Shown here piece by piece: positions 7,731 through 64,000 of a DNA stretch of 64,000 bases. Every line of letters starts with the position of its first letter. Within the stretch, counting starts at the first letter, position 1. Made by a program: the position numbers and the translations under genes. Source of the stretch: a phage. Below the pieces are notes generated by a model. The model was given only the letters and a program-made list of their open reading frames with translations. It was not told the origin of the DNA and did no database searches. The stretch is taken from sequence record PX418922.1; one strand, 5' to 3'.

Positions 7731-8360
7731 ATGGCAGTGAGTGTTGACCATGTAACAACTTGGGCCAGTATCAATGAAGATGTTAAAAACCTTCTGATTG
7801 AAGATTTTAAATCTTCTCCTAACATTGTCAAGCTCCTCTACATCGTATCCAGTGAAAAGCAAAAGATAGATCAGGCAATGATCTATCTTGCTAAACACCG
7901 CTTGATCTCCACAGCCACAGGCAAATACCTAGATATCTTAGGAGAAGAAATGGGGATCGAACGTAATGGCTCTGATGATGAAGAGTATAGAACAATATTA
8001 AAAATCAGGGCTTACCGCGTAGCCTCATCGGGGACTCGTGGTGACATAATTGATATCTTCGCCCGTTTCACAGGAACAGAGCGTGAAACGCTTAATACTT
8101 ACGTAGGTTTGAATAAAACCTTTGATGTGTTTTTCTACAACCTGTGTCTTCAATCTGATCAAGCTTTAGAGCAGTTGCTAAGTGTTTTCCCTATTATTAG
8201 TAGCTACCGTCTTGGAGCAAAAGCAGGATCAGCTTTTGGTTTTAGTTCTTATTATGCTACCAAACCGCCTCATGGTATTGGTGGTTTAGGTTCCCTGTAC
8301 ATGGAATCTACTGGGGATGAAACAGGACGCATGTGTACGCTTCTCAAGCAAATAGATTAA
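7731..8360 (+). CDS. baseplate / tail-fibre connector protein (gpI-like by position)
   Basis: 209-aa ORF immediately after J-like gene and before a fibre gene. Confidence 0.4.
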   Translation: MAVSVDHVTTWASINEDVKNLLIEDFKSSPNIVKLLYIVSSEKQKIDQAMIYLAKHRLISTATGKYLDILGEEMGIERNGSDDEEYRTILKIRAYRVASSGTRGDIIDIFARFTGTERETLNTYVGLNKTFDVFFYNLCLQSDQALEQLLSVFPIISSYRLGAKAGSAFGFSSYYATKPPHGIGGLGSLYMESTGDETGRMCTLLKQID

Positions 8361-8369
8361 GGAGTTTAA

Positions 8370-9431: not shown

Positions 9432-9977
9432 ATGATATTTACAAATTTTAAAAGATATATTCCCGAAGATCCCGAACTAAAAGAATTGGTAGAAGTAGAG
9501 AACATTCTTTTTCTTCGTTGCGATCAAGGTTACGATTGGTATGATTTACGTAGCACAGAATTCAATAACGATAAAATGAAAGTCGTTTTTGACGATCAAA
9601 ATCGTATTGTGTTTTGGAACACTGATCCTACATTACTTTGCCCTGAAGATCTTTCTATAGCACAAGTGGACTTTAATATAGACACTTTTGAGGATATTAG
9701 AAACAAGGTTCTGGATTTAGAAACTTTGACTCTTAAGGATAAAGAGTATTCCCGTGAAGAGTTGATGACACAAGCTAGTGCAAAAATTCGCTCTTTACAA
9801 GAAACAGCGGTAGCACTTATAACACCTTTACAGTATGCTAAAGATTTAGAAATGGCTACTGAAGATGAATTAGCTTATCTTAAAAATCTTCAAGTTTATG
9901 TGGTTAAACTAAACCGTGTTCCGCTTCAAAAAGACTATCCTTACACTATAGATTGGCCTACATTACCAACGGAATAA
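9432..9977 (+). CDS. tail fibre assembly / chaperone-like protein
   Basis: 181-aa acidic ORF directly downstream of fibre gene (positional inference). Confidence 0.35.
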   Translation: MIFTNFKRYIPEDPELKELVEVENILFLRCDQGYDWYDLRSTEFNNDKMKVVFDDQNRIVFWNTDPTLLCPEDLSIAQVDFNIDTFEDIRNKVLDLETLTLKDKEYSREELMTQASAKIRSLQETAVALITPLQYAKDLEMATEDELAYLKNLQVYVVKLNRVPLQKDYPYTIDWPTLPTE

Positions 9978-9986
9978 GGGATCATT

Positions 9987-10322
9987 ATGGAATTTCAAGA
10001 AGCATGGGGACTTGCAAAGGATGCAATAATCCCTTTAATCGGAGTCATCTGGTTCTTTTTCAAACAAAAAATGGATAAATTCGGCTCTGATCTTGAGGAA
10101 ATGGAGGAGAAAAGTCGAGAGCTAGAGAAGAAGTTGGTCTTTGTTGAATCAACTTATGCAACTAAAGCCGAACTTACCCAGATGCTAAATCAAATTAACT
10201 CTACATTAATGGCAAATAATAACACTCTTGAGCAAAAAATTGAAAAGATTATGGACCTCAAGAATGCGACTATCCAAATGATGCTAGATGACATAGTTAA
10301 ACGTACACAGAATAAGGGGTAA
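9987..10322 (+). CDS. hypothetical protein with N-terminal TM helix and coiled coil
   Basis: 111-aa ORF, 'IIPLIGVIWFFF' hydrophobic segment followed by charged helical region. Confidence 0.4.
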   Translation: MEFQEAWGLAKDAIIPLIGVIWFFFKQKMDKFGSDLEEMEEKSRELEKKLVFVESTYATKAELTQMLNQINSTLMANNNTLEQKIEKIMDLKNATIQMMLDDIVKRTQNKG

Positions 10323-10325
10323 TTA

Positions 10326-13300
10326 ATGGCAACATTCCCAACGTATCCAGCAACGTCTCTTGAACAGGGCGTAGATCTGGTTATTTTCTCGTCCAATCAA
10401 CTTCATGATGTTATTAATGGAAGTGCGACAGAAAGTATTGAGACAGAATCAGGGTTGATACCAACCCTGAGAAAAGCCCTTGTTGATAACTTTTTCTTTA
10501 AAAGCCCATTGGATTGGGCGCAAGGCACAAATGAAACGGTTTTTAACCAACTACGTTATTTTCAGAATGGGGTATTGAGCGGTTATTATTATGCTCCTAA
10601 TGCTACATTGGTAAACCCAATCCCTATGCAAGGTACTCCAGTAGGAGATAACAACTGGGTATTGTGGGGATTGAAGACAGAACAATTGGCAACAGAAGTC
10701 ACACCTTGGGTATATTCTGGTGCAACTGGTTATGAAACAGTAATCAGTCCTCCTTACATCTTTGATAGTGCTATTGTTACGATCAATGGTGTTATTCAGG
10801 TTCTGGGGGAAGCTTTCCGTATAGAAGATAGTAAGATCATCTTATCTGAACCTTTGGGACACGATCCTGCAACAGGACTGCCAAACAAGCTTTTCGCTTA
10901 TATTGGTAAAATCGTAGCTTCAGCAGATACAGATCCTAATCTAGAGAACCGTCTTGTTAGTTTAGAAACAAAAACGGAAGAACTAACAGAAAGCATAGAT
11001 AAAGTCCCTCTGCAAACTATTGCTCGTAAATATGGTTTGTTAGATGATGAGGTGGCTTACGCAACAGCAGGTCAATCGTTAACAGGGATTAAAGCTCTGT
11101 ATGATCCGGTAGCACAGTCTTCCTACACATTACCTCCTAACATCACAGGAACTTTAACATCTTTGTCTGTTTCTGGAGTAATGACTTATTCTGGAGGGTC
11201 TGTAGATCTTTCTGCACTAGCTGTTGAACGTGGACAGTTTGTCCATTTGCCTACAAGCTTTGGTAATAATGTAACTCTGACAGCTAAAAATCAGACGATT
11301 GGACGTGGTGCTGGTCGTTATCGTTGGGCTGGAAGTTTACCAAAAAGTATTTTGGCCTCTGACACATTAGAGACAAGCGGTGGATTAGGTCCAAACGCAT
11401 GGGTTCTAACTAATACGGAAGGACTGTTAACCCCTCGTGGTGGAACATACAACGATTTATTCGATGTTGTCTACTTGTCAGAATTTGCTAACAATACAAC
11501 TACCTATACCACACCAGAAGCAGCTTTCCAGGCGGCACTGTTAGCAGCAAAAGCTTCGAAAAGTAAGATTCTCGATGCTTACGGTTGCGATATGACTTTC
11601 ACGACAAGCTCTTTTGATATTCAAGGTATCACTTTGCGTGGTGGTGTGTTCCGTGGTCAACGCGACTATCGTGTGCAGAATGCTACAGTAGAAGGCACAA
11701 CTTTCCGTAACTCTCGTGTTATGTATTGGGGTGGTGCTGTGCGCATGTTCGATTGTTTGTGGGACGGTGCTCCTCGCGCAGGTCAAGTTGGTAGCTTGGT
11801 ATTCCAAGGCAACCCAATATCAGGTACTTTTGAAATTGATAATTGTACTTTTAAAAACGGGTTATATGGCATCCTTCAACAAGGGACAGGAGAACCAGTA
11901 ACACGCGGTGTCTTCCGTAACCTTACCTTCATGGACATGCAAGGTGATGCGATAGAACTGAACGTCATCAATAAACATTATGATGATGGTTGTGTGATTG
12001 AGAATATTTACCTGTCTAATATCGATGGGACTAACGCTCCTATTCCTCTGTCCAACTGGGGTATCGGTATCGGTGTAGCTGGTAAAGGACCATATGGTTA
12101 CGGAATCCCTGATGATCAATATTGCAAGAATATTACAATTCGTAACGTTTTTGCAAAACGTTGCCGTCAGATTGTCCACGTAGAAGTTGGTCGTAATATT
12201 TCTATCGAAAACATTCATGGCGATCCAGATCAAACCGTATCTGTTGGGACAGGTTTGGCAACTGGCGCAGTTGTAATGTATGGAAGTAAAGATTTTACGA
12301 TTGACGGTGTTTATGGAGAGCCTAAAACAGACGGTAGCACACTTGCAAGTAATATCCGTATGATTTATTTGGAGTGGGGAACTAACGCAGTTCTGGACGA
12401 AGAGGGTAATCCGGTAGTTCCGGCACAGGGTAGACCTTCAAACCCATGCTTTAACTATTCTGTTCGTAATATTCACACCAAAACTGGGCGTGTTTTTGCA
12501 GGAGTTTCCGCTGGGCCAGGTTATGAAAACAGAGTTAGCTTTGAAAATATTCGTTGCGCTGCATTGCAGTTGTTCGGTATAGCTTCTTGGCTTTCAATGT
12601 CTAACATCACCTGTAATATCTTCGATTGTGTTGGTCAACCTGAATCTGGTCCAGGGACATTTTATGATGGATTCTTCCGTAGAGAAAAATCTGTTCTTGA
12701 AATGGTTAACGTGAACTGTTACCCAGATGGCAAGACGATGGTTACTGGTCGTCCACAGTGGAGCCGTTGCCGTTACTCGGATATTCATCGTGTCAACTGT
12801 AATGTTGAAGCTAATATGTATACCAATATCGCAGGTGGTATTGGAGCTATTGTAGGGACAACGGGCAAAGTTTATTACTTAGAGCCTAATCCTAGTCGAA
12901 ACATTGATGGAATGCATTTCCCAACAGGGAAAGAGTTTGACAAAGGTGATATGATAGTCAAGGCGGATAATACGTTCTTCCTTGTAACAACAAGTGGGGC
13001 ATATATTCCAGATATCCCAGCTTTCGGTATTCGAGCTACACAGGCAGGAGATACCTTCCTGACACAGAACTTGACTCCTAACGGGACAGCAACAAATGCT
13101 TCTTGGTTGTATCATTACCCTCTGTCAGCAGGGACACGTATCCGTATTCCTGGTGCTGGCGTAGGTGGAGCAGATTTGGACACAGTTATTACTCGTGCAC
13201 CTTATCAAGATAATGATACGTGGACTAACCCAGTTAAAATAGACATTGCAGATCCAATTGTAACGCCTACAAGTGCTGGAGTTAGAATTAAAACCATACC

Positions 13301-20810: not shown

Positions 20811-23408
20811 TCAGTGACAGGACGCCCAAGAATTACCCACATCATATCCGGCAGTAAGCTGAACATTAAGATTGTAAAATTCTCCAGCCTTAGTAACAGC
20901 TAAGGCAGCAAGTTCACCTGCCCGACTATAGGCTGTAAACCATCCACCTTTAGGAGATTCATGAATGTTAGCCCAAATTTGCCCTGTCTCTTTTTCCTTA
21001 TTATGCTTCCATTCTTCGACTTTAGCAAGGCATTCTTTATCAATTTTCTTTTGTTCTTCAGGATCGTCTACTTTCTTCCAACCTAATGATTCAGGTGAAA
21101 ACCATTTAAATTCTACAAGGTTACGAGAAACTTCAAGCTGGGCTTCATCGTGATATGCAATCATTTGTTGCACGAAGTCTTTATTCTTCCAGTCATCTTT
21201 AAAGAAGTCAACACTTAGCCCTTCTTCTTCGATCATGTCGTCATAAATAACCATTGCACGTTTAGCACAGATAACCCCGCCGCTTTGGAATAGAGAGTTA
21301 AGAATCGCGTGAGCAGAACGAGTAGGAACCTTACGACCGTCAATACCCAAAACATATTGTTTACCAGTCTTAACCCAGAAATCGTTTAAACGTTCTTTAA
21401 GACGCGCCAATGGGAATGCAGCTTCCCAGAAAGCATCAAACACCAATTGACCTGTAAACTTATCGCTACCAATTGTTTTAGCAACCTTGTCGGCTTGTGC
21501 ACCATAGGTAATACCATACTTAACAGATTTAGCAGGACTACGTTCAAATTTACGTCCAATAGTTTCAGTGATACGTTTTGCCATCATTGTGTGAACATCG
21601 TTAGGTTTTTCTAACAACAGAGCGTTACAATATTCGTGTGGCTCCGGCTCGTACCGCCAACAGTAGTGTGATTCAATTTTTGCTTCCAAAGAGTCGAAGT
21701 CGTAGCCGATCTGGAAGTATTTAGGAACCTCTACACCAAACAAGTTACGCATCTCCCATCCAAACAAAGATGTGACACGAGGAATGTTAGCTACAGACCT
21801 ATGCTTCATACGAGAGGTTGCAGCATCACATGTAGCTGCTGGGGTAGGAATACGACCATCCGCCCTTACTGCGGCTAAGAAACCTTTATCGTATTCTTGA
21901 TCTTCTTCATCTTCTTCCCAATCAGCACCGCCACCTAAAATAGAGTTCCTACGATGCTTATACGTTAAGTATTCTACAATCTGTGTAGCATAAGGAAACT
22001 TCTCACCCAAAGCTTGCAGGTTAGGACAAATTTCTTTTTCCTGACCTTTGGTAAAACATGGGTTAGTCAATACTTTAAGACCGCGACCTTTACCTTTTGC
22101 TATACGCTCTTGAATCTTCCTTTCCAAGGTTTCCGGTGTGCACTCCAGATGATCACAACGATCCTGACAAAAATTAGAAGATAGAGTTTGCTCAACGTAA
22201 GCTCGAATGCCTTTCTGAAGTTCTTCCTCGCTCTTTTTAATCTTGGTGCCAGATTTAAGAGTCAAGTCTTTATCTTTATATTCAGACGGTACCCAACCTA
22301 ATCCTACAAGCCAGTTTTTAATATGGGTTGTATCGTTCAATGTTGCAGGAATGTTAGGATCACATAGAGGCTCATCTGCTGCAACTGGCAGTTTCCACTC
22401 TTTCCCCAACATAACTAACCACCAATCGCCATCCCTCTCTTCCAAATGACCATCATGTTTCTTAGCAAAATTGATCATATGGTTAGTTGGCTCTAAGTTC
22501 TTTTTAATTTGCAACTTAGGTGGAATAAAAGCTTTAAGATAACCTTTTGTTGCTGGTTTAGGTGGCAAAATAGGCTCAACGAGTAAACGAAGACGCTCCA
22601 TTTCTGCATCCAAAAAAGCAAGGTTCTCTTCTGCTTGTTTCATGTTAAAAGCAAACCCACGGTGTTCCTGGCGTGTAATAATGTCTGCTACACGTTGTTC
22701 AAGTTCAAATGGACCTTCCCATTTATCATAATCACCCCATTCTTCCATAAGGTAATTATATACGCTCGTATTGGCTTTGTTGTCATAGATACAGTAATAA
22801 AGCATATCCGCAGCAAAAGTCTTAAATCGATCTTCTTCTGGAATCTCTTTACGGAAATCTATTTTTACATCACCACCTGCTTTTCGAGAAAGTGCTGCCA
22901 AGCTATGTCCTGATTTGCCCTCAATCTTTCGATCTGGGTTTAACACTTTACTCAAAATCAAGGAGTCAATAAGTTTTACCTTATTTTTGCCCCACGTATT
23001 ATATTTAACACTGTAATCTAATCCATAAAACAGTTTTGTAGCCAACCAGTCGTAGTTGATACCGTTGTGAGCCACAGCCATTTCAACCAGATATTCAGGC
23101 TTGTCTTTAAAATAACCTTCATGATTAATAAAATCTGGGAAATCTTTTAGTTGAAAATGTGTGTAATCTTGCGCCACATACTCTTTAAGAACATATGTGT
23201 ATTTACCATCTGACTCTTCATAAGGACGCCCATCAAAGATGTATTTAGGGCCATCGTGGAAAGCTACTATTTCTCCTGTTTCATGGTTCTCTAAGACAAT
23301 ACAGTGCATTTGAAATGTGTCTTTGAGACGATAAGGACTAGCTAAATAATCAATAGTGTCATTATTCAACAATCCGTTTGCTTCAATATCCCATGTAAAC
23401 TTACTCAC
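20811..23408 (-). CDS. DNA polymerase, family A (T7 gp5-like) with 3'-5' exonuclease domain
   Basis: 865-aa ORF; N-terminal 'DIEANGL' exo motif, C-terminal '...GNSWASCH' closely resembling T7 polymerase C-terminus. Confidence 0.85.
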   Translation of the reverse strand: MSKFTWDIEANGLLNNDTIDYLASPYRLKDTFQMHCIVLENHETGEIVAFHDGPKYIFDGRPYEESDGKYTYVLKEYVAQDYTHFQLKDFPDFINHEGYFKDKPEYLVEMAVAHNGINYDWLATKLFYGLDYSVKYNTWGKNKVKLIDSLILSKVLNPDRKIEGKSGHSLAALSRKAGGDVKIDFRKEIPEEDRFKTFAADMLYYCIYDNKANTSVYNYLMEEWGDYDKWEGPFELEQRVADIITRQEHRGFAFNMKQAEENLAFLDAEMERLRLLVEPILPPKPATKGYLKAFIPPKLQIKKNLEPTNHMINFAKKHDGHLEERDGDWWLVMLGKEWKLPVAADEPLCDPNIPATLNDTTHIKNWLVGLGWVPSEYKDKDLTLKSGTKIKKSEEELQKGIRAYVEQTLSSNFCQDRCDHLECTPETLERKIQERIAKGKGRGLKVLTNPCFTKGQEKEICPNLQALGEKFPYATQIVEYLTYKHRRNSILGGGADWEEDEEDQEYDKGFLAAVRADGRIPTPAATCDAATSRMKHRSVANIPRVTSLFGWEMRNLFGVEVPKYFQIGYDFDSLEAKIESHYCWRYEPEPHEYCNALLLEKPNDVHTMMAKRITETIGRKFERSPAKSVKYGITYGAQADKVAKTIGSDKFTGQLVFDAFWEAAFPLARLKERLNDFWVKTGKQYVLGIDGRKVPTRSAHAILNSLFQSGGVICAKRAMVIYDDMIEEEGLSVDFFKDDWKNKDFVQQMIAYHDEAQLEVSRNLVEFKWFSPESLGWKKVDDPEEQKKIDKECLAKVEEWKHNKEKETGQIWANIHESPKGGWFTAYSRAGELAALAVTKAGEFYNLNVQLTAGYDVGNSWASCH

Positions 23409-24735: not shown

Positions 24736-26511
24736 TTAATAATTGCTATCCGTAGGCAAATTAGCAGGATTGTTGAAATACTGCTCTTTGTCATGCAGGG
24801 TTGCAGTTCTAATGTCATAGTAAAACTGCCCTGCCGGACCAGTTTCTGAGAACTCACGGTTTTTTAGGATAAAGCAATGAGTCGTATTGCGTTCTACAGG
24901 GTCTTCAGCGGCTTTATCTCGTTCCAAAGCCAAGGTAATACCAGCACCTTTAGCCAAGAAACTACTACCCATTGCATCGTCCTCTGTTAAGTGTTCATTG
25001 CCACCATTGGCCGATTTCTTAACGTGTGAGATGACAATAATAGTTATAGCATACTCTTTCATGATGCGCTTCAACCATGTTGCTAACTCTTCCTGGGCTT
25101 GAACATCCATACCAGAAAGCAAATCAGAATAAGGGTCGATAACAAGAATTGTTACTCCAAAATAGATGATCATCTCCAAAACTTTTTCTTTGATAGACTC
25201 CACATCTGCTCCACGATCATCACACACATAAAAACGTGGTGATCCATCTTCTCTTTCGTAAAAATCTAGGATTTTTTCTTTATTCTCTTCCAAGATTTGA
25301 AATTTCTCTTCCGGTGTTTTCCTGTGTAGAGGAATATGCAGGAACGAGGACAACAGGTTACGAGAATATTTCTTATAAGTTGCTTCCAAGGACAGAATAC
25401 CTAGGGTATGTTCTGGGTGCGCAACAATAATATGTTTGGTGATCTCGTTCACCATCAAAGTTTTACCGATACTGGTCTTTGCCAGGATAACTGTAATCTC
25501 TTCCTCTACTAAACCACCACCCAGCATATTTGCAGCAACACGCATAAAAGGAGGCAAGGTAATCATCTTGGATTCCAAGCATTCTAATGCGGCTTCATAC
25601 AAGACATTAGAAGCATAAACACCTGCTGGGGTGTATAGACGAGCACTCCAAAAAGCTTTTACGAAATCTTTTGCACGACCTTCTTCCAGATACTGATTGG
25701 CATCCTTAAGATCCATCTGCATACGATAGACTTTGTTACGAGGCAGCACCTTAACAATATTTTCAAATGCCTCATTACCTGCTTTGTCATTATCCATGCA
25801 AACAATAATCTTCTTAAATTTTTCAAAGAAAGGATATTGTGCCTGAACTTGTTTATACATACTGGTTTCACCAGTTGTGCCACTAACTACTGCTGGAAGT
25901 TCATACTTGTTGTCCAAGTTTTCAGATAGCATTTGATAAGCTGCCAGAGCATCGTGTTCACCACCTGTAATTACCACAGTATGAGAACGGTCTGCAAAAC
26001 GAATTTGTCCAAAAAGATCTACATCTTTACCTACTTGACCAATAGGTTTACTGAAATCTTTAGGATGAATACGACGCTTAAAACCAACCAATTCTTTACC
26101 GATAGTAGTTGGATATAAACAACTTTCTACTACCATCTGATCCCCTTCCTGACGGTATTCATAACGAACACCATAGAAAGATGAAACTTTTTCTTTAATG
26201 CCTCGATAACCACGTGGGTTGGTTGATGTTTCTTGAACAATTTTACGATGAATCTGTTTATTAAATTCCGAACCCACAATCTCCTCCTCTTCTAAAACTT
26301 CACCATTTTCTCGTAACCATTCTACGCTAGGAATAGTGTATTCACACGCAAAGCACTTAGCACCTTTATGCTCTCCATTAGAATCTAATCCATAAACCAT
26401 CAGGTTATTACGAGAGCGATCCTTGCCATTTTTCATGCAGCGCGGACAACCTGTATGCCCTTCCTTGCTAAGATCAACATCAAATCCATATTTAGTTATA
26501 ATGTGCGACAC
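24736..26511 (-). CDS. bifunctional DNA primase-helicase (T7 gp4-like)
   Basis: N-terminal Cys4 zinc finger 'CPRCM..CFACEY', central TOPRIM-like region, C-terminal Walker A 'TSIGKT'. Confidence 0.8.
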   Translation of the reverse strand: MSHIITKYGFDVDLSKEGHTGCPRCMKNGKDRSRNNLMVYGLDSNGEHKGAKCFACEYTIPSVEWLRENGEVLEEEEIVGSEFNKQIHRKIVQETSTNPRGYRGIKEKVSSFYGVRYEYRQEGDQMVVESCLYPTTIGKELVGFKRRIHPKDFSKPIGQVGKDVDLFGQIRFADRSHTVVITGGEHDALAAYQMLSENLDNKYELPAVVSGTTGETSMYKQVQAQYPFFEKFKKIIVCMDNDKAGNEAFENIVKVLPRNKVYRMQMDLKDANQYLEEGRAKDFVKAFWSARLYTPAGVYASNVLYEAALECLESKMITLPPFMRVAANMLGGGLVEEEITVILAKTSIGKTLMVNEITKHIIVAHPEHTLGILSLEATYKKYSRNLLSSFLHIPLHRKTPEEKFQILEENKEKILDFYEREDGSPRFYVCDDRGADVESIKEKVLEMIIYFGVTILVIDPYSDLLSGMDVQAQEELATWLKRIMKEYAITIIVISHVKKSANGGNEHLTEDDAMGSSFLAKGAGITLALERDKAAEDPVERNTTHCFILKNREFSETGPAGQFYYDIRTATLHDKEQYFNNPANLPTDSNY

Positions 26512-55851: not shown

Positions 55852-56208
55852 ATGAAAAAATTAATCTTAGCCACATTGCTGGCTACCGTAAGCTTCACCA
55901 CTTACGCTCAAAAATTTGTAGCAGTTAAAACAGATATTGGTAAAGATGTTGTGATCACAGGCAACAAGTTTTACTATACACCTGGAAATGGTGTTCTAGA
56001 AGAGTGTAAAGATGTTGAGGCATATACAGGAAAAGAAGATAACACGGAACGTCCTTTTTATTCGATTATAGCCACTTGCAAAAATGAAATAGTAGCTATT
56101 AAACAATATAAAGATGCCCCTGGAGGAGAATACTTATTAGTCAAGAATATTAAGAGTGAAAAAACTGCAAAGTTTACAGTAATTATTTTAAAAGGAGAAA
56201 CGTTCTAA
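55852..56208 (+). CDS. secreted hypothetical protein
   Basis: start at 'MKKLILATLLATVSFTTYAQ' signal peptide with RBS 'ggagggaag' (track 55822). Confidence 0.45.
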   Translation: MKKLILATLLATVSFTTYAQKFVAVKTDIGKDVVITGNKFYYTPGNGVLEECKDVEAYTGKEDNTERPFYSIIATCKNEIVAIKQYKDAPGGEYLLVKNIKSEKTAKFTVIILKGETF

Positions 56209-57347
56209 TGAAATACACTATTTTTGGAGATGTGGCTGTTGTAAATAAGGAATATGGTGTTGAAGCTAATAAACTTCCTGCTGGAGTTTGGGTTGTCAAC
56301 TGCGATCCGCACGGTAACTACTCTTTAGTGCGTGGCGAAAGTTTCTCTCTTCCGAACACTCTTTATGGGGAAACTAAAGACCGCGCCGCACATGTTATTA
56401 AAACATTTGCTCGTCGTAGTAAAGAAGGTAAAAATACTGGGGTGTTACTGACAGGCACAAAAGGCAGTGGTAAGACGATGTTAGCTAAACTAATTAGCAT
56501 GTCCCTAATGTCCACAGAAGGTTTAGGTATTCCAACCATTTTGGTTACACAGCCTTACACAGATGCTGGCTTCTTAGAATTTATGAGTAAAATTACAGAT
56601 CGTGCTGTTGTTTTATTTGACGAATTTGATAAAGTGTACGCTAAGAAAGAAGATCAGGAAGCACTGTTGACCTTGTTGGATGGAACAGGAAGTGGGAATA
56701 AACTTTACATCCTAACTAAAAATAGTGGTTATATCTCGGAATATTTTGTAAACCGTCCTAGTCGTATCTATTACAGTTTCAATTACGATAAACTGTCTAG
56801 TGAAACTATGTTAGATTACTTGGATAAGAACTTGGTAAATAAAAAACACGTAGATAACTTCCAACGTTTATGGGATGTTAGCACAGAGTTGTCTTTCGAT
56901 GTTATTCAAGGTATTGTAGAAGAATTGAATTTCTATCCAAAAATGACTTTTAAAGAATGTCTTGAAATGATGGGTATTTCTTTAGGCAACGATGCTAAAT
57001 GGAATGTGGCTTCTATCGTAGCTAATGGCAAAACTCTGAAGGTGAATTGGATCAATAACTGGCACGACTTCACCCCTACTAAGTTTTTGTCGGGTGCTTG
57101 TTCCCTGAACATCTATCTGCAAAGCTTGAAAGATGATGAAGTGGAAGCAATGGAAACCAACAGTTATGTTATCCTGGATGAAGATGGTGATCCACATATT
57201 GATCTATGTGCAACTGCTGATGGTCTAACTTGTGATCTGATTGAAGGTGGTAAGATCCTGGTGATGAGCACTACACCAGGAAACACTCTGCGAGTGGTGC
57301 TGGAGCCTGTAACACAACGTTCCACCACATTAGGTAGCGTGTTCTAA
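56208..57347 (+). CDS. AAA+ family ATPase
   Basis: Walker A 'GTKGSGKT', Walker B 'VVLFDEFDK'. Confidence 0.55.
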   Translation: MKYTIFGDVAVVNKEYGVEANKLPAGVWVVNCDPHGNYSLVRGESFSLPNTLYGETKDRAAHVIKTFARRSKEGKNTGVLLTGTKGSGKTMLAKLISMSLMSTEGLGIPTILVTQPYTDAGFLEFMSKITDRAVVLFDEFDKVYAKKEDQEALLTLLDGTGSGNKLYILTKNSGYISEYFVNRPSRIYYSFNYDKLSSETMLDYLDKNLVNKKHVDNFQRLWDVSTELSFDVIQGIVEELNFYPKMTFKECLEMMGISLGNDAKWNVASIVANGKTLKVNWINNWHDFTPTKFLSGACSLNIYLQSLKDDEVEAMETNSYVILDEDGDPHIDLCATADGLTCDLIEGGKILVMSTTPGNTLRVVLEPVTQRSTTLGSVF

Positions 57348-57422: not shown

Positions 57423-58409
57423 ATGGCAGCACCAAAATCATGGGAACAATATAAAGAAGAGTGTCAACCAATAGCAGAGAGTAAGCAAATCCAAATCTTA
57501 GGATGGACGGGAGAATGGAAAGGGGTTAATACAAAACTTGATTTGTTGTGTCATTGTGGTTATAAATGGGATACTACAAGTATTAACAATTTTAAACGTG
57601 GTAGTGGTTGTCCTTTATGTGGATATGAGAATACAAGGAAGGCACAAACAATATCCGACGATCAACATATTGCAGATTTCTTTTCTACAGGGAAGTTTAA
57701 GGAAGGCACTATTTTCACCAATACGGGGGAACGTAAAGGGTGTGATCCAGTATGGATGATTCAGTGTCCTGTTTGTTCTCATGATGAATATGTTAAAGCT
57801 GGACTATGTGATGGTAAGTTTTATATGACGCGTGGCAATCTTAAATATGGATACTTACCCTGCCGTTGCTCTGCATCTTATAGGTATACAGCGGAACAGA
57901 TTACGTATAAAGTAAGAAAGAAAATAGAAAAGAAAGGGTATGTTTGGATAGGATGGATTACCAAACCATCTTCTATAGGTAAGTTTAAATATATATGTAA
58001 GAGTCATGGGGAACAAAAAGGAACTGCAAACAACCTTTTAAACATAGGACAAGGTTGTCCGCAGTGTGCTAACAAAAATCAACAACAAGCCTACATTAAT
58101 TATATTTACGATGAGCAAGATATTATCTGTGCACTGAAGTTTGGTATTGCTAATAATAGTAATCGCCGTATGAAAGAACAAAATAGTCATAATGTGTTCA
58201 CTATGAAACAACACCAAGTGTGGCACTTCCCTACTGTTAAGCAATGCCAAAACGCAGAGAAATATTGCAAGAAGGTGTTAAACACGGAAGCAGTGAGCAA
58301 ATATTCTATGCAAGATGGCTACACAGAAACAGTGGAGCTATCTTGCATGGCATCCGTACAGAATATTTATAAACTTTATGGTGGAACATTACAGGAGGAA
58401 ACATGTTAG
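57423..58409 (+). CDS. Zn-ribbon repeat protein
   Basis: 328-aa ORF with at least five CxxC/CxC pairs ('CHCGY','CPLCGY','CPVCSH','CPQCAN'). Confidence 0.45.
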   Translation: MAAPKSWEQYKEECQPIAESKQIQILGWTGEWKGVNTKLDLLCHCGYKWDTTSINNFKRGSGCPLCGYENTRKAQTISDDQHIADFFSTGKFKEGTIFTNTGERKGCDPVWMIQCPVCSHDEYVKAGLCDGKFYMTRGNLKYGYLPCRCSASYRYTAEQITYKVRKKIEKKGYVWIGWITKPSSIGKFKYICKSHGEQKGTANNLLNIGQGCPQCANKNQQQAYINYIYDEQDIICALKFGIANNSNRRMKEQNSHNVFTMKQHQVWHFPTVKQCQNAEKYCKKVLNTEAVSKYSMQDGYTETVELSCMASVQNIYKLYGGTLQEETC

Positions 58410-58970: not shown

Positions 58971-59499
58971 TGATTATGTATTCTTCTTTTCACATAAAGA
59001 TGTTTTTAGTAATTGGTATATTGCACCCTTTACAGAAACCGAACCAGGTTACAATCAGACATTTAATTGTGTCGAACAATACATGATGTGGCGTAAAGCT
59101 TTGCTTTTTAATGACCACAACACTGCACAGGCTATTCTGACTCATAGTTTGATACGGAAAGATGAGAAGATCCAAGCTTATTACAAACGTATGGGTAAGG
59201 CAGTGTCGGATTTTGATAACAACGTATGGGAAGAGAACCGTGAGCGTATTGTTATGCGAGGTTTATGCTTGAAATATGTACAGAATCCAGATTTGTATGC
59301 AGACTTACACCTTTACCAATACAAAACGTTTGTTGAAGCAAGCCCCTACGATAAGGTTTACGGAATTGGAATGGGGATGTATGAACCAGGGGTGCTAAAC
59401 CCTGCCACCTGGAAAGGGCAGAATCTTTTAGGTAAATATCATAATAAACTGATCGAAATACTTTTCCCAGACAAAATACCGCAAAGACGATATTTGTGA
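58957..59499 (+). CDS. NADAR (YbiA-like) domain protein
   Basis: 'FFFSHKDVFSNWY...FNCVEQYMMWRKALLF...EASPYDKVYGIGMG' matches NADAR/DUF1768 signature pattern. Confidence 0.5.
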   Translation: MRITDDYVFFFSHKDVFSNWYIAPFTETEPGYNQTFNCVEQYMMWRKALLFNDHNTAQAILTHSLIRKDEKIQAYYKRMGKAVSDFDNNVWEENRERIVMRGLCLKYVQNPDLYADLHLYQYKTFVEASPYDKVYGIGMGMYEPGVLNPATWKGQNLLGKYHNKLIEILFPDKIPQRRYL

Positions 59500-59554
59500 T
59501 ATTTTAACTTTTTTCATTTTTAGAACAAAGGTGTCACTTTGTAGCACAGAAATA

Positions 59555-59590
59555 AGGCTCCTACAGCACCGTAGAGAGCCTGTTATTTTG
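59555..59590 (+). terminator. candidate terminator hairpin after NADAR gene
   Basis: 'aggctcctacagcaccgtagagagcct' stem-loop followed by 'gttattttg'. Confidence 0.45.
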
Positions 59591-59721
59591 TCCTATACAA
59601 ACCCTTGTCTTTTTCAGTTTGCATCACTAGGATTCGATCTAAGTAGGTTCCTGAAGGTCTACCAATAAGATTAAAGGTTATCTCAAATTACCACTACCTG
59701 TTATCTCAAAAATTCCTCAAA

Positions 59722-59919
59722 TTATTTAAACTTTTTAAGAATTTACAAAAGTGAAAGTTGAAAACCAAAATTTAAAGTTTAGGAAAATTATCTTAAAATG
59801 TCAGATACAAAACAAAACTCAAAAGTCAAGGAAAATTTTAAAAATTTTGCGCGCCCACAGTATTTAAAGTTTTTTTGCTTTTACAAAAATGAAAGTACAA
59901 AAGCAAAATTTAAAGTTTA
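59722..59919. repeat. two ~60-bp AT-rich direct repeats (iteron-like)
   Basis: 'tttacaaaagtgaaagttgaaaaccaaaatttaaagttta' (59742-59781) vs 'tttacaaaaatgaaagtacaaaagcaaaatttaaagttta' (59880-59919), each preceded by 'atttaaa[c/g]ttttt'. Confidence 0.6.
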
Positions 59920-59940
59920 CAAAAATTTATGCAGATGGGA

Positions 59941-59957
59941 ATGAGAAGAGTTCTCAT
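59941..59957. promoter_or_regulatory. perfect 7-bp inverted repeat
   Basis: 'atgagaagagttctcat'. Confidence 0.4.
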
Positions 59958-59962
59958 GTGGA

Positions 59963-59988
59963 AATGCAAATGATAATGATTCGCATTT
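59963..59988. promoter_or_regulatory. Fur-box-like palindrome 1
   Basis: 'aaatgcaaatgataatgattcgcattt' contains GATAATGAT matching first half of Fur consensus GATAATGATAATCATTATC. Confidence 0.4.
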
Positions 59989-60024
59989 AGGTTTATAAAT
60001 GAGATTGATTCTTATTTAATAAAG

Positions 60025-60047
60025 TAAATGATAATCATTCTCATTTA
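60025..60047. promoter_or_regulatory. Fur-box-like palindrome 2
   Basis: 'taaatgataatcattctcattta' matches Fur consensus at about 16/19 positions and is near-palindromic. Confidence 0.5.
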
Positions 60048-60304
60048 GAGAATGACGCGCAGGGGCGGTGTTTGTCTCGCGCTCCCGTGTCCCCTCGCCA
60101 TGTACTAAGAATAACAGATCCAGCCAGGAAAGCAAGCGATTATTTTATCTTTACATTTCTTTACAAATATATAGCGCCCAGCCTACCGGCGATCAACCTT
60201 CCAACCAGTGCCCCTGGTATGTTAGCCCCGCCTTTACGCCGTGGGGTGGCGCTTCCTCTTCTGTATGTAAAACAGTATAAGCCCTATCCCTGGGCTTGTC
60301 AAGA

Positions 60305-60571
60305 TTATTTTTTGTTTTCTTGCCAGGTCAGGACACCTAGCCAAAAATGAATATCACCTTTTCCCCAATGTGGTATATTGCTTTCTTTCCCACCTTCACG
60401 CGCCCAGGTAAAACCGCCCGTGTAACTTTGTAATTGATAACTATCCTCGACCTTATAATCTGATAGGTTGAGAACGGTTTCAACCTTTAAGCCCGTTGCG
60501 CTTGCTACCTGGTGCACCGTGCCGCCTTGCCAGCCCAATGAGTGCATAAGATGTAATGTAGTATTTGTCAT
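60305..60571 (-). CDS. hypothetical protein in GC-richer block
   Basis: 88-aa ORF; local composition visibly GC-richer than flanking phage DNA. Confidence 0.3.
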   Translation of the reverse strand: MTNTTLHLMHSLGWQGGTVHQVASATGLKVETVLNLSDYKVEDSYQLQSYTGGFTWAREGGKESNIPHWGKGDIHFWLGVLTWQENKK

Positions 60572-60680
60572 GGTGTCGCCCTTTCTTTGTTGTGCGCCCT
60601 GGTTGGCGCGGTAGAAAGATGATAGCCCTTTCCTTTATATATAGCAAGCAAAAAGAAAATAAAAAAGATTGAAAAAGTGG

Positions 60681-60738
60681 TTGACGTTCGCCAGGTGGCG
60701 GCATAATATTTACCACGTAGCGCGGCAATGGTGCCGCT
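60681..60738 (+). promoter_or_regulatory. early-type promoter P1 with 5' hairpin
   Basis: TTGACG-17nt-TAATAT then 'gcggcaatggtgccgc' hairpin. Confidence 0.6.
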
Positions 60739-60758
60739 CACTATTTGGAGTTAAGATC

Positions 60759-60956
60759 ATGGCAACATTGCACATTGTGGCGAAAGCTGGACAAATCAAC
60801 GTAATAGTAAACGGTTTTACTGAGTTCAGTCATCCCCAGGATGATCATGAAACGGTTTTATCTTTCATTGATTCCCTGTTAGAAATGGGAGTCATTACAG
60901 AAGACCAGCACGCTACAAAATGCAAGCGCGTTAATCAAATTGCAGGGATAGAATAA
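60759..60956 (+). CDS. hypothetical small early protein
   Basis: 65-aa ORF starting 'MATLHIV' after RBS 'ggag' (track start 60669 lies upstream of promoter). Confidence 0.5.
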   Translation: MATLHIVAKAGQINVIVNGFTEFSHPQDDHETVLSFIDSLLEMGVITEDQHATKCKRVNQIAGIE

Positions 60957-60962
60957 AAAGTA

Positions 60963-61017
60963 TTGACAACAAACAACAACCTGATAAGATGTATCACATA
61001 GGGGCGACAAGCGCCCC
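60963..61017 (+). promoter_or_regulatory. early-type promoter P2 with 5' hairpin
   Basis: TTGACA-16nt-TAAGAT 'gtatcacata' then 'ggggcgacaagcgcccc' hairpin. Confidence 0.6.
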
Positions 61018-61041
61018 GCCTAACAGAAGAGAGAAATCATC

Positions 61042-61314
61042 ATGGCATCATATAGCGCAACAATGATCGTAACTGGCACCACTGGTAAACCTATGAGCGG
61101 TGGCGGATCTTTCGCTAATATTAATATTGACGGGCGCTTATCCCTGGACGCAGCGATCACCGTGGCGCGGGAAACATTTAAGAAAGAATGTAAATTCAAT
61201 AAACAAGATTATCTCGGTTTCGCTATTGAAAAAACCGCGCGCTTTGTTGATTATAAAAGCCCGAAAATGGTTGATACTACACTGAAAGCGCAAGATGTAG
61301 CCTTTTTGCTTTAA
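61042..61314 (+). CDS. hypothetical small early protein
   Basis: 90-aa ORF 'MASYSATMIV...'. Confidence 0.5.
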   Translation: MASYSATMIVTGTTGKPMSGGGSFANINIDGRLSLDAAITVARETFKKECKFNKQDYLGFAIEKTARFVDYKSPKMVDTTLKAQDVAFLL

Positions 61315-61326
61315 GGCTTGACATTA

Positions 61327-61382
61327 ACGAATAATTTGTTAATATGTTACATAAAGCGGGAATAGTTCCCGCTATTTGTAAG
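61327..61382 (+). promoter_or_regulatory. early-type promoter P3 with 5' hairpin
   Basis: TTGACA-16nt-TAATAT then 'agcgggaatagttcccgct' hairpin. Confidence 0.6.
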
Positions 61383-61390
61383 GTGGTAGA

Positions 61391-61648
61391 ATGTTTTACA
61401 TCAAATTAAAAGGTCACGTGATCGCGTTCAAAGATAACGCTTTTTACAGATTAGCAAAATATGCGTTAATACATCCCCACTATGTTTATATAAGGGGGCG
61501 TGATGAAATAAATATTTTTGATCAAACAACATGCGAAAACATCGAGATCCGCAAGGTTGGCGTACGTGATTATCGTACATCTTTCTACCCTTGCAAGGAT
61601 TCAGCAAGTCTTTTTAAAGTATGCCAATTGTTGAAAAAAGGTGGTTAA
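61391..61648 (+). CDS. hypothetical small early protein
   Basis: 85-aa ORF. Confidence 0.5.
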   Translation: MFYIKLKGHVIAFKDNAFYRLAKYALIHPHYVYIRGRDEINIFDQTTCENIEIRKVGVRDYRTSFYPCKDSASLFKVCQLLKKGG

Positions 61649-61649
61649 T

Positions 61650-62207
61650 ATGGGCCGCGAATATGTGATCCAGTCTTGGGTAAAACATGAAGCAGATGAT
61701 CCGCGCATCATTCCCGATCATCTTATCGATGAATCCACGGGATATAGCGGTGAGCAAATAGGTAACAGATTAGCACGTAGTAACGGCAACGTAAAAGCGC
61801 GTTATGTGCGCCCTGGCTGGCTGGCAAATGGTAACGCTGATTTATCCAGTGCGGAAGATGCGAGCGACGGCGCGAAAGATAATCCTTTGTACAAAATTGA
61901 TCCGGCTTTTCGTGTCCTGGATGAATACCCCAGCAAGATAGCGGCGCTCGATCAGGCCCTGGAAAGTAAGCGCATCACCTGGACCGCTTACAACATGGCA
62001 AAAAACGTACTTGATGGTAAATTGATTCAAGCTGAAAGAAAATTAGCCAAAATTGCAGCCATAACCCAGGAGGAAGACGAGGAGACAACGGAAGAGGAAG
62101 AGTACGAAGAGATCCCGCCGTTGTTGTGTGTTGATGCTTTCCCTGATTATCAGCCGACAGAGGAAGAAAAAAGGATCGCACTAGAAAACTTTGAAAATAG
62201 TCTTTGA
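61650..62207 (+). CDS. hypothetical early protein with acidic C-terminal region
   Basis: start at ATG after RBS 'aaaggtgg' (track 61641); 'EEDEETTEEEEYEE' tract. Confidence 0.5.
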   Translation: MGREYVIQSWVKHEADDPRIIPDHLIDESTGYSGEQIGNRLARSNGNVKARYVRPGWLANGNADLSSAEDASDGAKDNPLYKIDPAFRVLDEYPSKIAALDQALESKRITWTAYNMAKNVLDGKLIQAERKLAKIAAITQEEDEETTEEEEYEEIPPLLCVDAFPDYQPTEEEKRIALENFENSL

Positions 62208-62259
62208 CATATCGCCGCCACTGGCATAATATTTACCACGTAGGGCGGCAATGGTGCCG
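62203..62259 (+). promoter_or_regulatory. early-type promoter P4 with 5' hairpin
   Basis: TTGACA-17nt-TAATAT, near-identical to P1 over ~40 bp, then 'ggcggcaatggtgccgc' hairpin. Confidence 0.6.
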
Positions 62260-62289
62260 CTCATAGTGAAATTATGCAAGAGGTTTGCA

Positions 62290-62388
62290 ATGATTAATAA
62301 AGAAAATAGCTTGACGGTTGGAACGATTAACGCTATCATTCTTGCCGTTCCATTTTGGATTGTATTAGCGGCTATTATTTTCTAAAAA
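62290..62388 (+). CDS. 32-aa hydrophobic peptide (not in supplied track)
   Basis: 'MINKENSLTVGTINAIILAVPFWIVLAAIIF' downstream of P4 with RBS 'agagg'. Confidence 0.3.
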
Positions 62389-62394
62389 ATATTC

Positions 62395-62455
62395 TTGACA
62401 ACGTTTTTTAATCTGATAAGATGTATCACATAGGGCGGCGGAATACTTCCCCGCC
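62395..62455 (+). promoter_or_regulatory. early-type promoter P5 with 5' hairpin
   Basis: TTGACA-16nt-TAAGAT 'gtatcacatagggcggcggaatacttccccgcc'. Confidence 0.6.
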
Positions 62456-62476
62456 AAAACAAAAAAGGGTAACACA

Positions 62477-62839
62477 ATGAGCAAGCAAATCAATACTATC
62501 ATGTTTAATCTGGTATCTTTCCGCGATGATATGAAAAATTTACCACGTGAAACGGTTGATATTCATGTTTCAGCTTATCGCGCCCTTATTGATATGTTAC
62601 CGCTAAAACGTGATCAACATGCCGCTAATATGATGCTTAATGCTATGCTTAAAAAGATGATTCAAACGGATCTCACCCTGGCGTATGAGTATCAAGGGCG
62701 CTTATATGCAACTTACAACAAGGCGGTACCTGGTCTGGGAAGTACCGAAGAGTTGCACGGCTTAAACCTGGATCAAAACACTTGGGATAGTATGCGCCGC
62801 GTTATGGTATGGGCCGAAAGCGGTAAAATTTACGAATAA
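62477..62839 (+). CDS. hypothetical early protein
   Basis: 120-aa ORF. Confidence 0.5.
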   Translation: MSKQINTIMFNLVSFRDDMKNLPRETVDIHVSAYRALIDMLPLKRDQHAANMMLNAMLKKMIQTDLTLAYEYQGRLYATYNKAVPGLGSTEELHGLNLDQNTWDSMRRVMVWAESGKIYE

Positions 62840-62845
62840 AAACGG

Positions 62846-62905
62846 TTGACATTGTTTAAAATTCTAGTATAGTTTACCACATAGGGCGGGAAGTGGTTTC
62901 CCGCC
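62846..62905 (+). promoter_or_regulatory. early-type promoter P6 with 5' hairpin
   Basis: TTGACA-16nt-TATAGT then 'gggcgggaagtggtttcccgcc' hairpin. Confidence 0.6.
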
Positions 62906-62927
62906 AACAATGAAAAAGGTTATCATC

Positions 62928-63293
62928 ATGGCTATTAATATTAATGTTTCCGCTTATGCTACCCTGGCTAACACGGCTAAAATTGAATTATCCAGCATTG
63001 AGGCGGTGCATATTAGCGCCCGTCGCTGGTTTCAACGGTCCTACGGTAACACATATTTTTCTTTAATGGTTGACGTTGAGATCGGCGGTAAACTGATCGA
63101 GGTGGTTAACGTTCCGTTTCAATATGGCTATGGTGATCATTTTGATACCGTCGCCCTAGAAGAGTTTAGCAAGGTTATCAACCTGGAAGGTAAAGAGTTT
63201 TCAAATTATGCCTACCTTTCCCGTTTTTGCCGTGACAATGGGATCACTGTATACAGTCATGCGAGCGATGTAAAACGTAAAAAAGATTTATAA
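62928..63293 (+). CDS. hypothetical early protein
   Basis: start placed at 'MAININ...' with RBS 'aaaaagg' (track 62910); N-terminus resembles 63713 ORF. Confidence 0.5.
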   Translation: MAININVSAYATLANTAKIELSSIEAVHISARRWFQRSYGNTYFSLMVDVEIGGKLIEVVNVPFQYGYGDHFDTVALEEFSKVINLEGKEFSNYAYLSRFCRDNGITVYSHASDVKRKKDL

Positions 63294-63299
63294 AAAGCA

Positions 63300-63358
63300 T
63301 TGACAGCACGAATAAAAAGAGTAAACTGTATTACATAGAGAGCGGGAACACTTCCCGC
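63300..63358 (+). promoter_or_regulatory. early-type promoter P7 with 5' hairpin
   Basis: TTGACA-16nt-TAAACT then 'agcgggaacacttcccgc' hairpin. Confidence 0.55.
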
Positions 63359-63382
63359 CTCACTGAAAAAGAGAGAAAAATC

Positions 63383-63622
63383 ATGGCTAAATCTAAAATG
63401 TACAACGGTCACAAAAACAAAACTCATTGGAATGTAAGCCTTTGGATTAATAACGATGAATCGTTATACCGGTTGGCCCAAGATTTTATTAACGCTAATG
63501 CTAATCGTAATGATGCGGCGCGGGATATGATGCTTTTTCTGGAACAAACTGGACAAGATAAAACGCCAGACGGTTTCAAATATAGCACTACTGCGATCCG
63601 TGCCGCGATGGTTGGAATGTAA
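63383..63622 (+). CDS. hypothetical small early protein
   Basis: 79-aa ORF. Confidence 0.5.
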   Translation: MAKSKMYNGHKNKTHWNVSLWINNDESLYRLAQDFINANANRNDAARDMMLFLEQTGQDKTPDGFKYSTTAIRAAMVGM

Positions 63623-63631
63623 TAAAAACAG

Positions 63632-63691
63632 TTGACAACGTTTAAAATTAGTGTAAGATGTATCACATAGGGCGGGAAGTGGTTTCCCGCC
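63632..63691 (+). promoter_or_regulatory. early-type promoter P8 with 5' hairpin
   Basis: TTGACA-16nt-TAAGAT then 'gggcgggaagtggtttcccgcc' hairpin (identical to P6 hairpin). Confidence 0.6.
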
Positions 63692-63712
63692 AAAACAAAG
63701 AGATTAAAGATT

Positions 63713-63940
63713 ATGGCTATCAATATTGTTCGCGTATCCGGCACCGTTGGCACTTCCCAGGTTATTGCAGTTGTAACAAACAAAAAGATTAATGATGTAT
63801 GTGAGATCTTGAATAAGTGGGCTATTGCTAATTTTGGGGAATATGCAAGCGTCGAGTACATCGAATCCTACCAGGTGCCAACCATCAGCCTAACCGATCT
63901 CAACGTTGATCGCCTGTTATGCCTGGATGAATTGATCTGA
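63713..63940 (+). CDS. hypothetical small early protein
   Basis: 75-aa ORF 'MAINIVRVSG...'. Confidence 0.5.
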   Translation: MAINIVRVSGTVGTSQVIAVVTNKKINDVCEILNKWAIANFGEYASVEYIESYQVPTISLTDLNVDRLLCLDELI

Positions 63941-63949
63941 AAAAGATTG

Positions 63950-64000
63950 TTGACACCGGAAAGAAAAAGAGTAAACTGTATTACGTAGGGCGGCAATGGT
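63950..64000 (+). promoter_or_regulatory. early-type promoter P9 (hairpin truncated by window end)
   Basis: TTGACA-16nt-TAAACT 'gtattacgtagggcggcaatggt'. Confidence 0.5.

Follow-up and report, generated by a model that had tools for sequence, protein, structure and literature searches.

A repeat array in the non-coding DNA of a phAPEC8-like Escherichia myophage (Phapecoctavirus, Stephanstirmvirinae; genomes ~150 kb) has been characterized in the present study. We tentatively favour the view, with limited confidence, that its repeats are an iteron-like array to which a protein of the phage would bind, and that this array probably serves a T7-type replisome as an origin activated by leftward transcription. 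Three lines of sequence evidence are consistent with such an origin. First, the repeat goes beyond what chance would give, lies in AT-rich DNA of low stability, has a conserved architecture, appears to be strongly constrained, and carries boxes unique to the site. Second, a predicted promoter, P(-), is aimed at the array in 12/12 phages. Third, a family-A polymerase and a gp4-like primase/helicase are encoded in the window, that is, in the whole 64,000-nt stretch of DNA that was analysed (PX418922.1). The functions that a lytic phage confines to a single site are usually packaging and replication initiation. Since packaging is excluded (see below), the single-site array, the T7-type replisome and the geometry of the promoter together place an origin first among the readings.

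Layout of the gap and its repeats

The genes of the window are arranged as follows.

1-18 kb, plus strand: tail protein genes.
18-54 kb, minus strand: replication and nucleotide metabolism genes.
20811-23408: family-A DNA polymerase.
24736-26511: gp4-like primase/helicase.
54-59.5 kb, plus strand: small genes, including an AAA+ ATPase, a CapR/T5orf172 endonuclease and a NADAR protein.
56208-57347: the AAA+ ATPase.
59500-60304: gap of ~805 bp without a credible gene.
60305-60571, minus strand: lone 88-aa ORF.
From ~60.6 kb, plus strand: small early-gene cluster.

Besides the family-A DNA polymerase and the gp4-like primase/helicase, the block at 18-54 kb includes ribonucleotide reductases and a Pif1/RecD-like helicase. 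Each early gene of the downstream cluster has a sigma-70 promoter followed by a conserved hairpin. The non-coding module forms the upstream edge of a ~32-kb early plus-strand block, which crosses the terminal repeat and reaches 18.4 kb in phage Schickermooser. The upstream neighbour of the module varies by genus (NADAR, DUF6939 or an unassigned protein). A search with 1.8 kb around the repeats matched 144 phage records, all of the phAPEC8 group, with the best matches (98% identity) in Escherichia phages SKA64 and nepoznato. The 805-bp gap contains repeated motifs of at least five classes, and its elements are listed below.

59556-59582: GC-rich hairpin terminator closing the upstream plus-strand block (also an ARNold annotation in phAPEC8).
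59677-59687 and 59700-59710, plus strand: two copies of GTTATCTCAAA, 23 bp apart.
59720-59786, plus strand: repeat unit 1.
59721-59736, plus strand: box A1 of unit 1, ATTATTTAAACTTTTT.
59767-59781, plus strand: box B1 of unit 1, AAAATTTAAAGTTTA, 46 bp from box A1.
59787-59858, plus strand: repeat unit 2, degenerate in Phapecoctavirus (from a five-genus alignment and the raw sequences).
59859-59939, plus strand: repeat unit 3.
59859-59874, plus strand: box A3 of unit 3, AGTATTTAAAGTTTTT.
59905-59919, plus strand: box B3 of unit 3, AAAATTTAAAGTTTA.
59940-60055: four Fur-box-like palindromes, spaced 29 bp, adjoining the array.
60056-60267, minus strand: GC-rich non-coding element of ~210-240 bp, conserved at the DNA level across two subfamilies.
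60274-60302, minus strand: putative sigma-70 promoter P(-), TTGACA-17-TATACT, an 11/12 consensus match.

The repeat search returned a direct repeat of 72 nt (59718-59789 versus 59856-59927), 82% identical at an offset of 138. Under +1/-2 scoring, the best direct repeat (59723-59789 versus 59861-59927) scored 34; in 300 dinucleotide-preserving shuffles made from the same AT-rich stretch the score was 9.9 +/- 1.2 with a maximum of 16, which puts the observed repeat ~20 SD above the shuffles. The original prediction had described two direct repeats of ~60 bp, at 59722-59781 and 59860-59919, and these are real, being the cores of the 72-nt copies. The count of two did not hold: there are three units, the middle one (59787-59858) being degenerate in the genus, and two copies 138 bp apart are visible because this middle unit has decayed in the window phage. 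The degenerate unit reads ATTATCTTAAAATGT... AAAATTTTAAAAATTTTGCGCGCCCACAG, and unit 2 is intact in Justusliebigvirus, Citrobacter phage Tr1 and Klebsiella phage KP13-26. Successive boxes are spaced 46, ~20, 46, ~30 and 46 bp. The core ATTTAAAGTTT is present in four copies within 200 bp (at 59724, 59770, 59862 and 59908), and no exact copy was found elsewhere in the 64 kb. The pair of GTTATCTCAAA motifs was also correctly noticed as occurring twice, with a start (59688) that lies 11 nt off the actual one (59677). Their core, TATCTCAAA, is confined to this locus in the window and has a single copy, at the matching position, in Schickermooser; 2-3 copies lie upstream of the array in phiWec181, Klebsiella phage BIS47 and Erwinia phage SNUABM01.

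The segment 59720-59919 has 22% GC, the lowest 200-bp value in the 64 kb (window mean 39.3 +/- 3.8%), and the array is the most AT-rich stretch at all window sizes tested. Nearest-neighbour energy ranks the region as the least stable of the 64 kb when the window size is 100 or 300 bp, and places it among the least stable across window sizes. The placement of the repeats between a terminator (59556-59582) and Fur-box-like palindromes (59940-60055), at a boundary between gene blocks, has been confirmed. The AT-rich non-coding character claimed for the stretch also stands, at 22% GC and without a credible gene, with the correction that the gap measures ~805 bp and not ~450 bp.

Several other properties of the array were considered and rejected. 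Consistent A-tract phasing at 10-11 bp was absent in 13 phages, so intrinsic curvature was discarded. No tandem array over the units was reported by TRF. Folding of the array RNA was no better than that of shuffles on either strand (z +1.22 and +0.88), and a structured RNA over the repeats was rejected on these values. A 48-aa ORF (59798-59944, annotated in WPEC1) was rejected as a gene because its frame is not kept in phiWec181 and the other genera lack it; it had no match in Pfam or PHROG. A promoter array inside units 1 and 3 was likewise rejected, as the hexamer matches are not kept in PD06, Tr1 and KP13-26.

Conservation, constraint and uniqueness

Three tandem units of 63-77 bp are observed at the homologous gaps of phiWec181, Justusliebigvirus PD06, Tr1 and KP13-26, each with box A (ATTATTTAAAGTTTTT) at its start and box B (AAAAnCAAAATTTAAAGTTT) at its end. 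In the five-genus alignment the boxes are kept between genera and the unit interiors have diverged, and the units are 60-82% alike. These comparisons indicate an ancestral array of three units of 65-76 bp with two related boxes each, giving six sub-sites. A common module order is found in Stephanstirmvirinae and Vequintavirinae, namely at least three direct repeats, Fur-box-like palindromes, a GC-rich element and an opposing sigma-70 promoter. The same architecture was observed in the Vequintavirinae phages CR9, SSE121, rV5-like JES2013, POP18, BIS47, UPEC06, CB7 and SNUABM01; in this subfamily, 3 to ~7 direct repeats lie directly upstream of 1-5 Fur-box-like palindromes, and the box sequences differ, reading GGTwCTCGATCG or GRACTTGAGRGG. 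A scan of IMG/VR for further relatives returned two loci only, both from Justusliebigvirus.

Phages of E. coli carry three types of box, ATTATTTAAAG (phAPEC8 type), CTCGATCG (rV5 type) and ACTTGAGRGG (UPEC06), and the box sequence tracks the phage lineage, not the host. Since box type follows the lineage in this way, we infer that the binding partner of the boxes is encoded by the phage and co-evolves with them, rather than being a host factor. The homologous arrays of Certrevirus have 46-50% GC; AT-richness is therefore not the conserved property, and its loss in Certrevirus weakens the "unwinding element" part of the origin model.

To measure constraint, the interval 58.9-60.7 kb was aligned across nine Phapecoctavirus genomes. 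Of the 222 positions of the array (59718-59939), 5 vary (2.2%), three of them at its right edge, and mean pairwise identity is 99.4%; in the adjoining non-coding DNA, 34/251 positions vary (13.5%; Fisher p = 3e-6). The proportion of variable sites is 17.5% in the NADAR gene, 16.4% in the Fur-like block, 6.8% in the GC element and 27.9% in the 88-aa ORF. Thus, at 2.2% variable sites, the whole array, including the unit interiors and the degenerate unit, is more constrained than the neighbouring genes. Unit 2 is nearly invariant within Phapecoctavirus despite its degeneracy, the number of repeat units is constant among close relatives, and three Justusliebigvirus genomes show the same pattern of constraint. 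As judged from these alignments, purifying selection acts on every position of the array. The low diversity within the genus could also stem from a recent recombinational sweep of the segment; such recombinational spread appears to be the only alternative source of the pattern.

In a whole-genome search, which combined Schickermooser 1-92 kb and 134-151 kb with the window, boxes A and B were found at this locus only, except for one chance near-match with two mismatches. The GC-element part of the gap is matched by 351 phage records. Searches of 72,556 plasmids and of complete E. coli genomes for a copy of the module, as in satellites or mini-replicons, found none; the lone "plasmid" match was a 137.6-kb record aligned over 90 bp only, from the last Fur-like palindrome into the beginning of the GC element. 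An iteron-like landmark, as first suggested for these repeats, is borne out by a position and architecture kept across two subfamilies, by near-invariance within the genus and by the uniqueness of the boxes.

Promoter geometry and the case for an origin

The elements to the right of the array bear on how it might work. The Fur-like palindromes number 1-5 in all relatives and always follow the array; the 19-bp Fur consensus is matched best in the window at 60024 (16/19), and other matches here reach 14/19 in a 6-nt register. On the plus strand, a promoter that overlaps the last Fur-like site is weak and not consistently present among phages. The GC element is regarded as non-coding because its indels in the 12-phage alignment are not multiples of three, and it is predicted to be the 5' part of the leftward transcript. 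Its plus strand is C-rich, and the leftward RNA would therefore be G-rich. Support for a structured RNA over this element was weak and strand-ambiguous: RNAalifold gave -14.6 and -16.4 kcal/mol with little covariation, the MFE z was -1.69 on the minus strand and +0.12 on the plus strand, and Rfam returned no family at gathering score in the window, with chance-level matches only (E up to 10) over 59400-60700.

The predicted promoter P(-), whose start site would lie near 60267, points leftward to the Fur-like sites and the array, crossing the GC element first. It is kept in 12/12 phages of both subfamilies (-35 4-6/6, -10 5/6, spacer 17-18), while the sequence of its GC-rich spacer has diverged among the 12. 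No convincing terminator was found between P(-) and the array. At the far edge, the hairpin at 59556-59582 has U-rich tails on both strands (fold z -3.97 on plus, -2.65 on minus) and may possibly stop leftward transcripts that cross the gap as well; the equivalent hairpin of Tr1 and PD06 has UUUUUAU on the minus strand only.

The 88-aa ORF behind P(-) adjoins the module in both subfamilies (UPEC06, 70% identity; CB7, 62% in the N-terminal domain). Its protein was considered as the factor that binds the array. The model is confident, but no significant fold match was found for it.

Herein, we propose that the job of the module would be to start phage DNA replication. A sequence-specific protein encoded by the phage would bind the boxes, at up to six ancestral sub-sites. 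RNA polymerase moving leftward from P(-) would first copy the GC element into a G-rich transcript and then, 330-550 nt beyond the predicted start, reach DNA that is among the least stable in the window; the box-bound protein would help duplex opening or helicase loading at the array. Binding of the boxes by a phage protein, read-through from P(-) to the array and the role as an origin are all inferred. Origins used by T7-type replisomes consist of a promoter followed by an easily opened stretch.

Two classes of known origins invite comparison. Iteron-type origins include lambda ori, with its four O-protein sites, and those of the plasmids P1 (oriR), pSC101 and R6K. Like them, the present array repeats a short box several times in direct orientation at one site, beside DNA that in this phage may melt easily, and its boxes are lineage-specific, as expected with a co-evolving binding protein; copy number varies by genus, from 3 to ~7 boxes. 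Unlike iterons, which are regularly spaced at ~22 bp, the boxes are set in long bipartite units of 65-76 bp with a spacing of 46/~20-30 bp, the array is not accompanied by a linked initiator gene or by DnaA or IHF sites, and the Certrevirus arrays are not AT-rich. Transcription-primed origins include the T7 primary origin (promoters 1.1A/1.1B and an AT-rich stretch), T4 oriF/oriG (a promoter and an unwinding element) and ColE1 RNA II. The resemblance here lies in a conserved P(-) aimed at an AT-rich array of low stability a few hundred nt downstream, in a phage with a T7-type polymerase and primase-helicase and a predicted G-rich transcript. In contrast to these systems, the module would use a host sigma-70 promoter, and Fur-like sites and a repeat array are interposed. 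For the RNA the comparison is one of composition only: rich in G where the transcript would cover the GC element, rich in U along the array.

Several observations weigh against an origin. Neither DnaA boxes (TTWTNCACA) nor the IHF consensus (WATCAANNNNTTR) occur in 59480-60310, GATC is not clustered in the gap, and no initiator gene was found beside the repeats, where the neighbours are NADAR, the endonuclease and proteins without an assigned function. The AAA+ ATPase, 2.4 kb from the array, was rejected as an initiator since its similarity is of the generic P-loop kind only. The box spacing is irregular, whereas plasmid iterons recur regularly every two helical turns. Across the array, a leftward transcript would be rich in U, and its RNA:DNA hybrids would be weak. 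GC skew gives no origin signal at the array; the skew turns only once in the window, at ~54 kb, where transcription diverges, and this turn tracks transcription rather than the array. Similarly, in the rV5 paper skew analysis yielded no origin and skew followed transcription (PMC3606486), and no mapped origin for this phage group was encountered in the literature searched (PMC3606486). In one genome note the region appears as a "2,604-bp noncoding region", without explanation (PMC4591320). Of the three functions originally put forward for the repeats (replication origin, packaging signal or transcription factor array), replication origin is the most plausible, with the qualification that the classical marks (DnaA, IHF, an initiator gene) are absent.

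Alternative readings and implications

The repeats might instead be a regulatory nucleoprotein array, at which a phage regulator, possibly the 88-aa protein, controls transcription of the early block or the P(-) RNA with no role in replication. This is rather unlikely in our judgement and has several facts in its favour: the module directly borders the early plus-strand block on its upstream side, the 88-aa ORF is kept beside it in both subfamilies, and Fur-like operators adjoin the repeats. The model of the 88-aa protein is small, all-alpha and confident (pLDDT 95.6), with a helix-turn-helix-like segment recognized by eye. Boxes unique to one locus would be expected of a single-site function such as an origin, not of a general promoter or operator motif.

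It is improbable that the repeats are modules of a leftward non-coding RNA of ~720 nt, running from P(-) to the hairpin at ~59550. Free of structure and rich in U, this RNA could serve as a sponge or decoy that captures a host nuclease or RNA-binding protein. It would be in line with the conservation of P(-), with the minus-strand terminators of Tr1 and PD06 at the far edge, with the lack of a convincing terminator between P(-) and the far hairpin, and with the constraint on all array positions rather than on the boxes alone. A precedent exists in PhiTE of the same supergroup, in which a repeated non-coding RNA, pseudo-ToxI, acts against a defence system (PMC3475682). However, shuffled sequence folds better than the array on both strands, the unit number of the array does not vary among close relatives, and its units (65-76 nt, 60-82% alike) differ from the near-identical tandem units of ~34-36 nt in type III antitoxins. 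The array also differs from ToxI and pseudo-ToxI in that TRF finds no tandem array. Identity of the two loci was rejected, as pseudo-ToxI lies at phiTE_202/203 and the array at phiTE_078/079.

A landmark for DNA entry, like the injection stop signal (iss) of T5, would mark the inner boundary of the segment that enters first. This too is improbable, and we place it lower still. BLAST aligns the Fur-like block with T5-like phages at 9.3-9.7 kb, within their terminal repeats, and these positions fall in T5 "Repeat Region 3" (9194-10409), the proposed iss, and EASG3 has the same palindromes beside a direct-repeat array. T5 Repeat Region 3 (Davison, bioRxiv 10.1101/866236) is likewise a large untranslated region with dense direct repeats and palindromes, and Fur-box-like palindromes are common to both at the nucleotide level. 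The segment that T5 transfers in the first step makes up 7.9% of its genome. The array lies at 6-9% of genome length from the right physical end, bounding small early genes; the distance is 9.2-13.4 kb, with small early genes only between. Against an entry landmark, the gap has none of the paired DnaA boxes that define the T5 region, lies outside a long terminal repeat and has unrelated repeat units, and the terminal repeat of these phages is 329 bp instead of ~10 kb. Small early genes flank the terminus on both sides, so neither end is marked as the one entering first. The common palindromes may be Fur sites acquired independently, and Fur-like palindromes occur within the terminal repeat too. 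Moreover, we know of no report of two-step DNA transfer for these myophages.

Direct repeats in non-coding DNA resemble the terminase recognition sites of some phages, which would speak for a packaging function. The Schickermooser record ends in an exact 329-bp direct repeat, and a terminal repeat of 328 bp had been reported for this phage by Korf et al. (PMC6563267). The 329-bp repeat stands at position 1 in at least eight independently finished Phapecoctavirus records, including Ro121lw, BI-EHEC, 3A1, 10C3, 118_SA_NWU, WPEC4 and WPEC6, and it is 9.2-13.4 kb downstream of the array in Schickermooser, anhysbys, ukendt, phAPEC8 and iGC_PHA_EC001. That the array is a packaging (pac) signal or the genome terminus, one of the original suggestions, is thus scarcely credible and was rejected, as the 329-bp terminal repeat maps 9-13 kb downstream in every genome checked and has its own 1.5-kb non-coding region.

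Coliphage collections commonly contain rV5-like and phAPEC8-like myophages, which are under evaluation for phage therapy and biocontrol. A compact, unique and strongly constrained cis-element, with an internal grammar and a promoter aimed at its repeats, has now been defined in this group, from which no such element is known to have been described. The question of an origin is now directly testable, and the array offers a defined bait for the binding protein. The array of Fur sites in common with the injection-stop region of T5-like phages hints that host iron status is linked to an early step of infection. Beyond the origin favoured here, there is a small chance that the module represents a novel type of origin or control region common to Stephanstirmvirinae and Vequintavirinae, composed of the lineage-specific repeats, host Fur sites and a conserved G-rich RNA driven by a promoter, in which the Fur-bound block would gate leftward priming on its way to the initiator-bound repeats, or a T5-like entry pause, by host iron. 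If this gating were true, the start of replication (or a T5-like entry pause) would depend on the iron status of the host.

Fur-box-like palindromes and a second non-coding region

Several features lie in and around the gap, the non-coding region of about 805 bp (59500-60304) that holds the three-unit repeat array. First, palindromes resembling the Fur box are found beside the array:

59940-60055: four Fur-box-like palindromes, spacing 29 bp

When the 64-kb window was scored against the Fur consensus, the top match in the whole window (16/19) was observed at 60024. Similar palindromes are present in T5-like phages within Repeat Region 3, the proposed injection-stop region (e.g. EASG3 9205-9740), and a word search of the Davison preprint on the T5 injection stop signal (10.1101/866236) returned neither "Fur" nor "iron". 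The same palindrome type was also observed both within and adjoining the 329-bp terminal repeat of the Phapecoctavirus relative Schickermooser, whose physical ends lie in L003 and L004. This terminus has its own non-coding region, the second large one of the genome:

L003 1-613 and L004 15972-17195: non-coding region of the Schickermooser physical terminus, about 1.5 kb

The region is crowded with short repeats, among them runs of the AACCAACAACAA type as well as ATAACGATAA motifs, and additional Fur-like sites are present.

Sequences upstream of the gap

Second, features were observed upstream of the gap and at its left edge:

57423-58409: CapR-domain/T5orf172 endonuclease gene
59490-59527: TGATATTT motif in two to three copies (GATATTTGTGATATTT), where the gene preceding the gap has its stop codon

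Among Phapecoctavirus genomes, no segment of the locus varies more than the endonuclease gene (mean identity 64%, with numerous indels), whereas its neighbours are 93-98% identical, and this sequence pattern would be expected of a mobile homing-endonuclease cassette. The TGATATTT repeats also directly follow the upstream gene in the compared phage sequences L010 and L014-L018; the motif is kept in both subfamilies, although the upstream gene varies by genus (NADAR, DUF6939, unknown). The cumulative GC-skew minimum, at approximately 54000, is the sole skew turn in the window and tracks gene orientation; transcription diverges there between the minus-strand replication block and the plus-strand block.

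Early-gene hairpins and a conserved GC-rich element

Third, each of the small early genes (60600-64000; 5818-9667 in the compared sequence L002) lies downstream of a sigma-70 promoter followed by a conserved 5' hairpin (AGGGCGGCAATGGTGCCGCTCA). These hairpins are annotated as "PHIRE promoters" in the phAPEC8 record, and they resemble a conserved 5'-UTR stem-loop more closely than they do promoters. A sigma-70 promoter also drives a non-coding element within the gap:

60302-60274, minus strand: sigma-70 promoter, TTGACA-17-TATACT
60056-60302, minus strand: GC-rich non-coding element, approximately 240 bp

The promoter is kept in 12 of 12 phages, and the DNA-level conservation of the element, which contains a conserved direct repeat (TCTTTACATTTCTTTACAAA), extends across 351 records of phages in the Stephanstirmvirinae and Vequintavirinae. 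The element matches no Rfam family and its covariation is weak, which makes it a candidate for either a new non-coding RNA of phages or an element acting at the DNA level.
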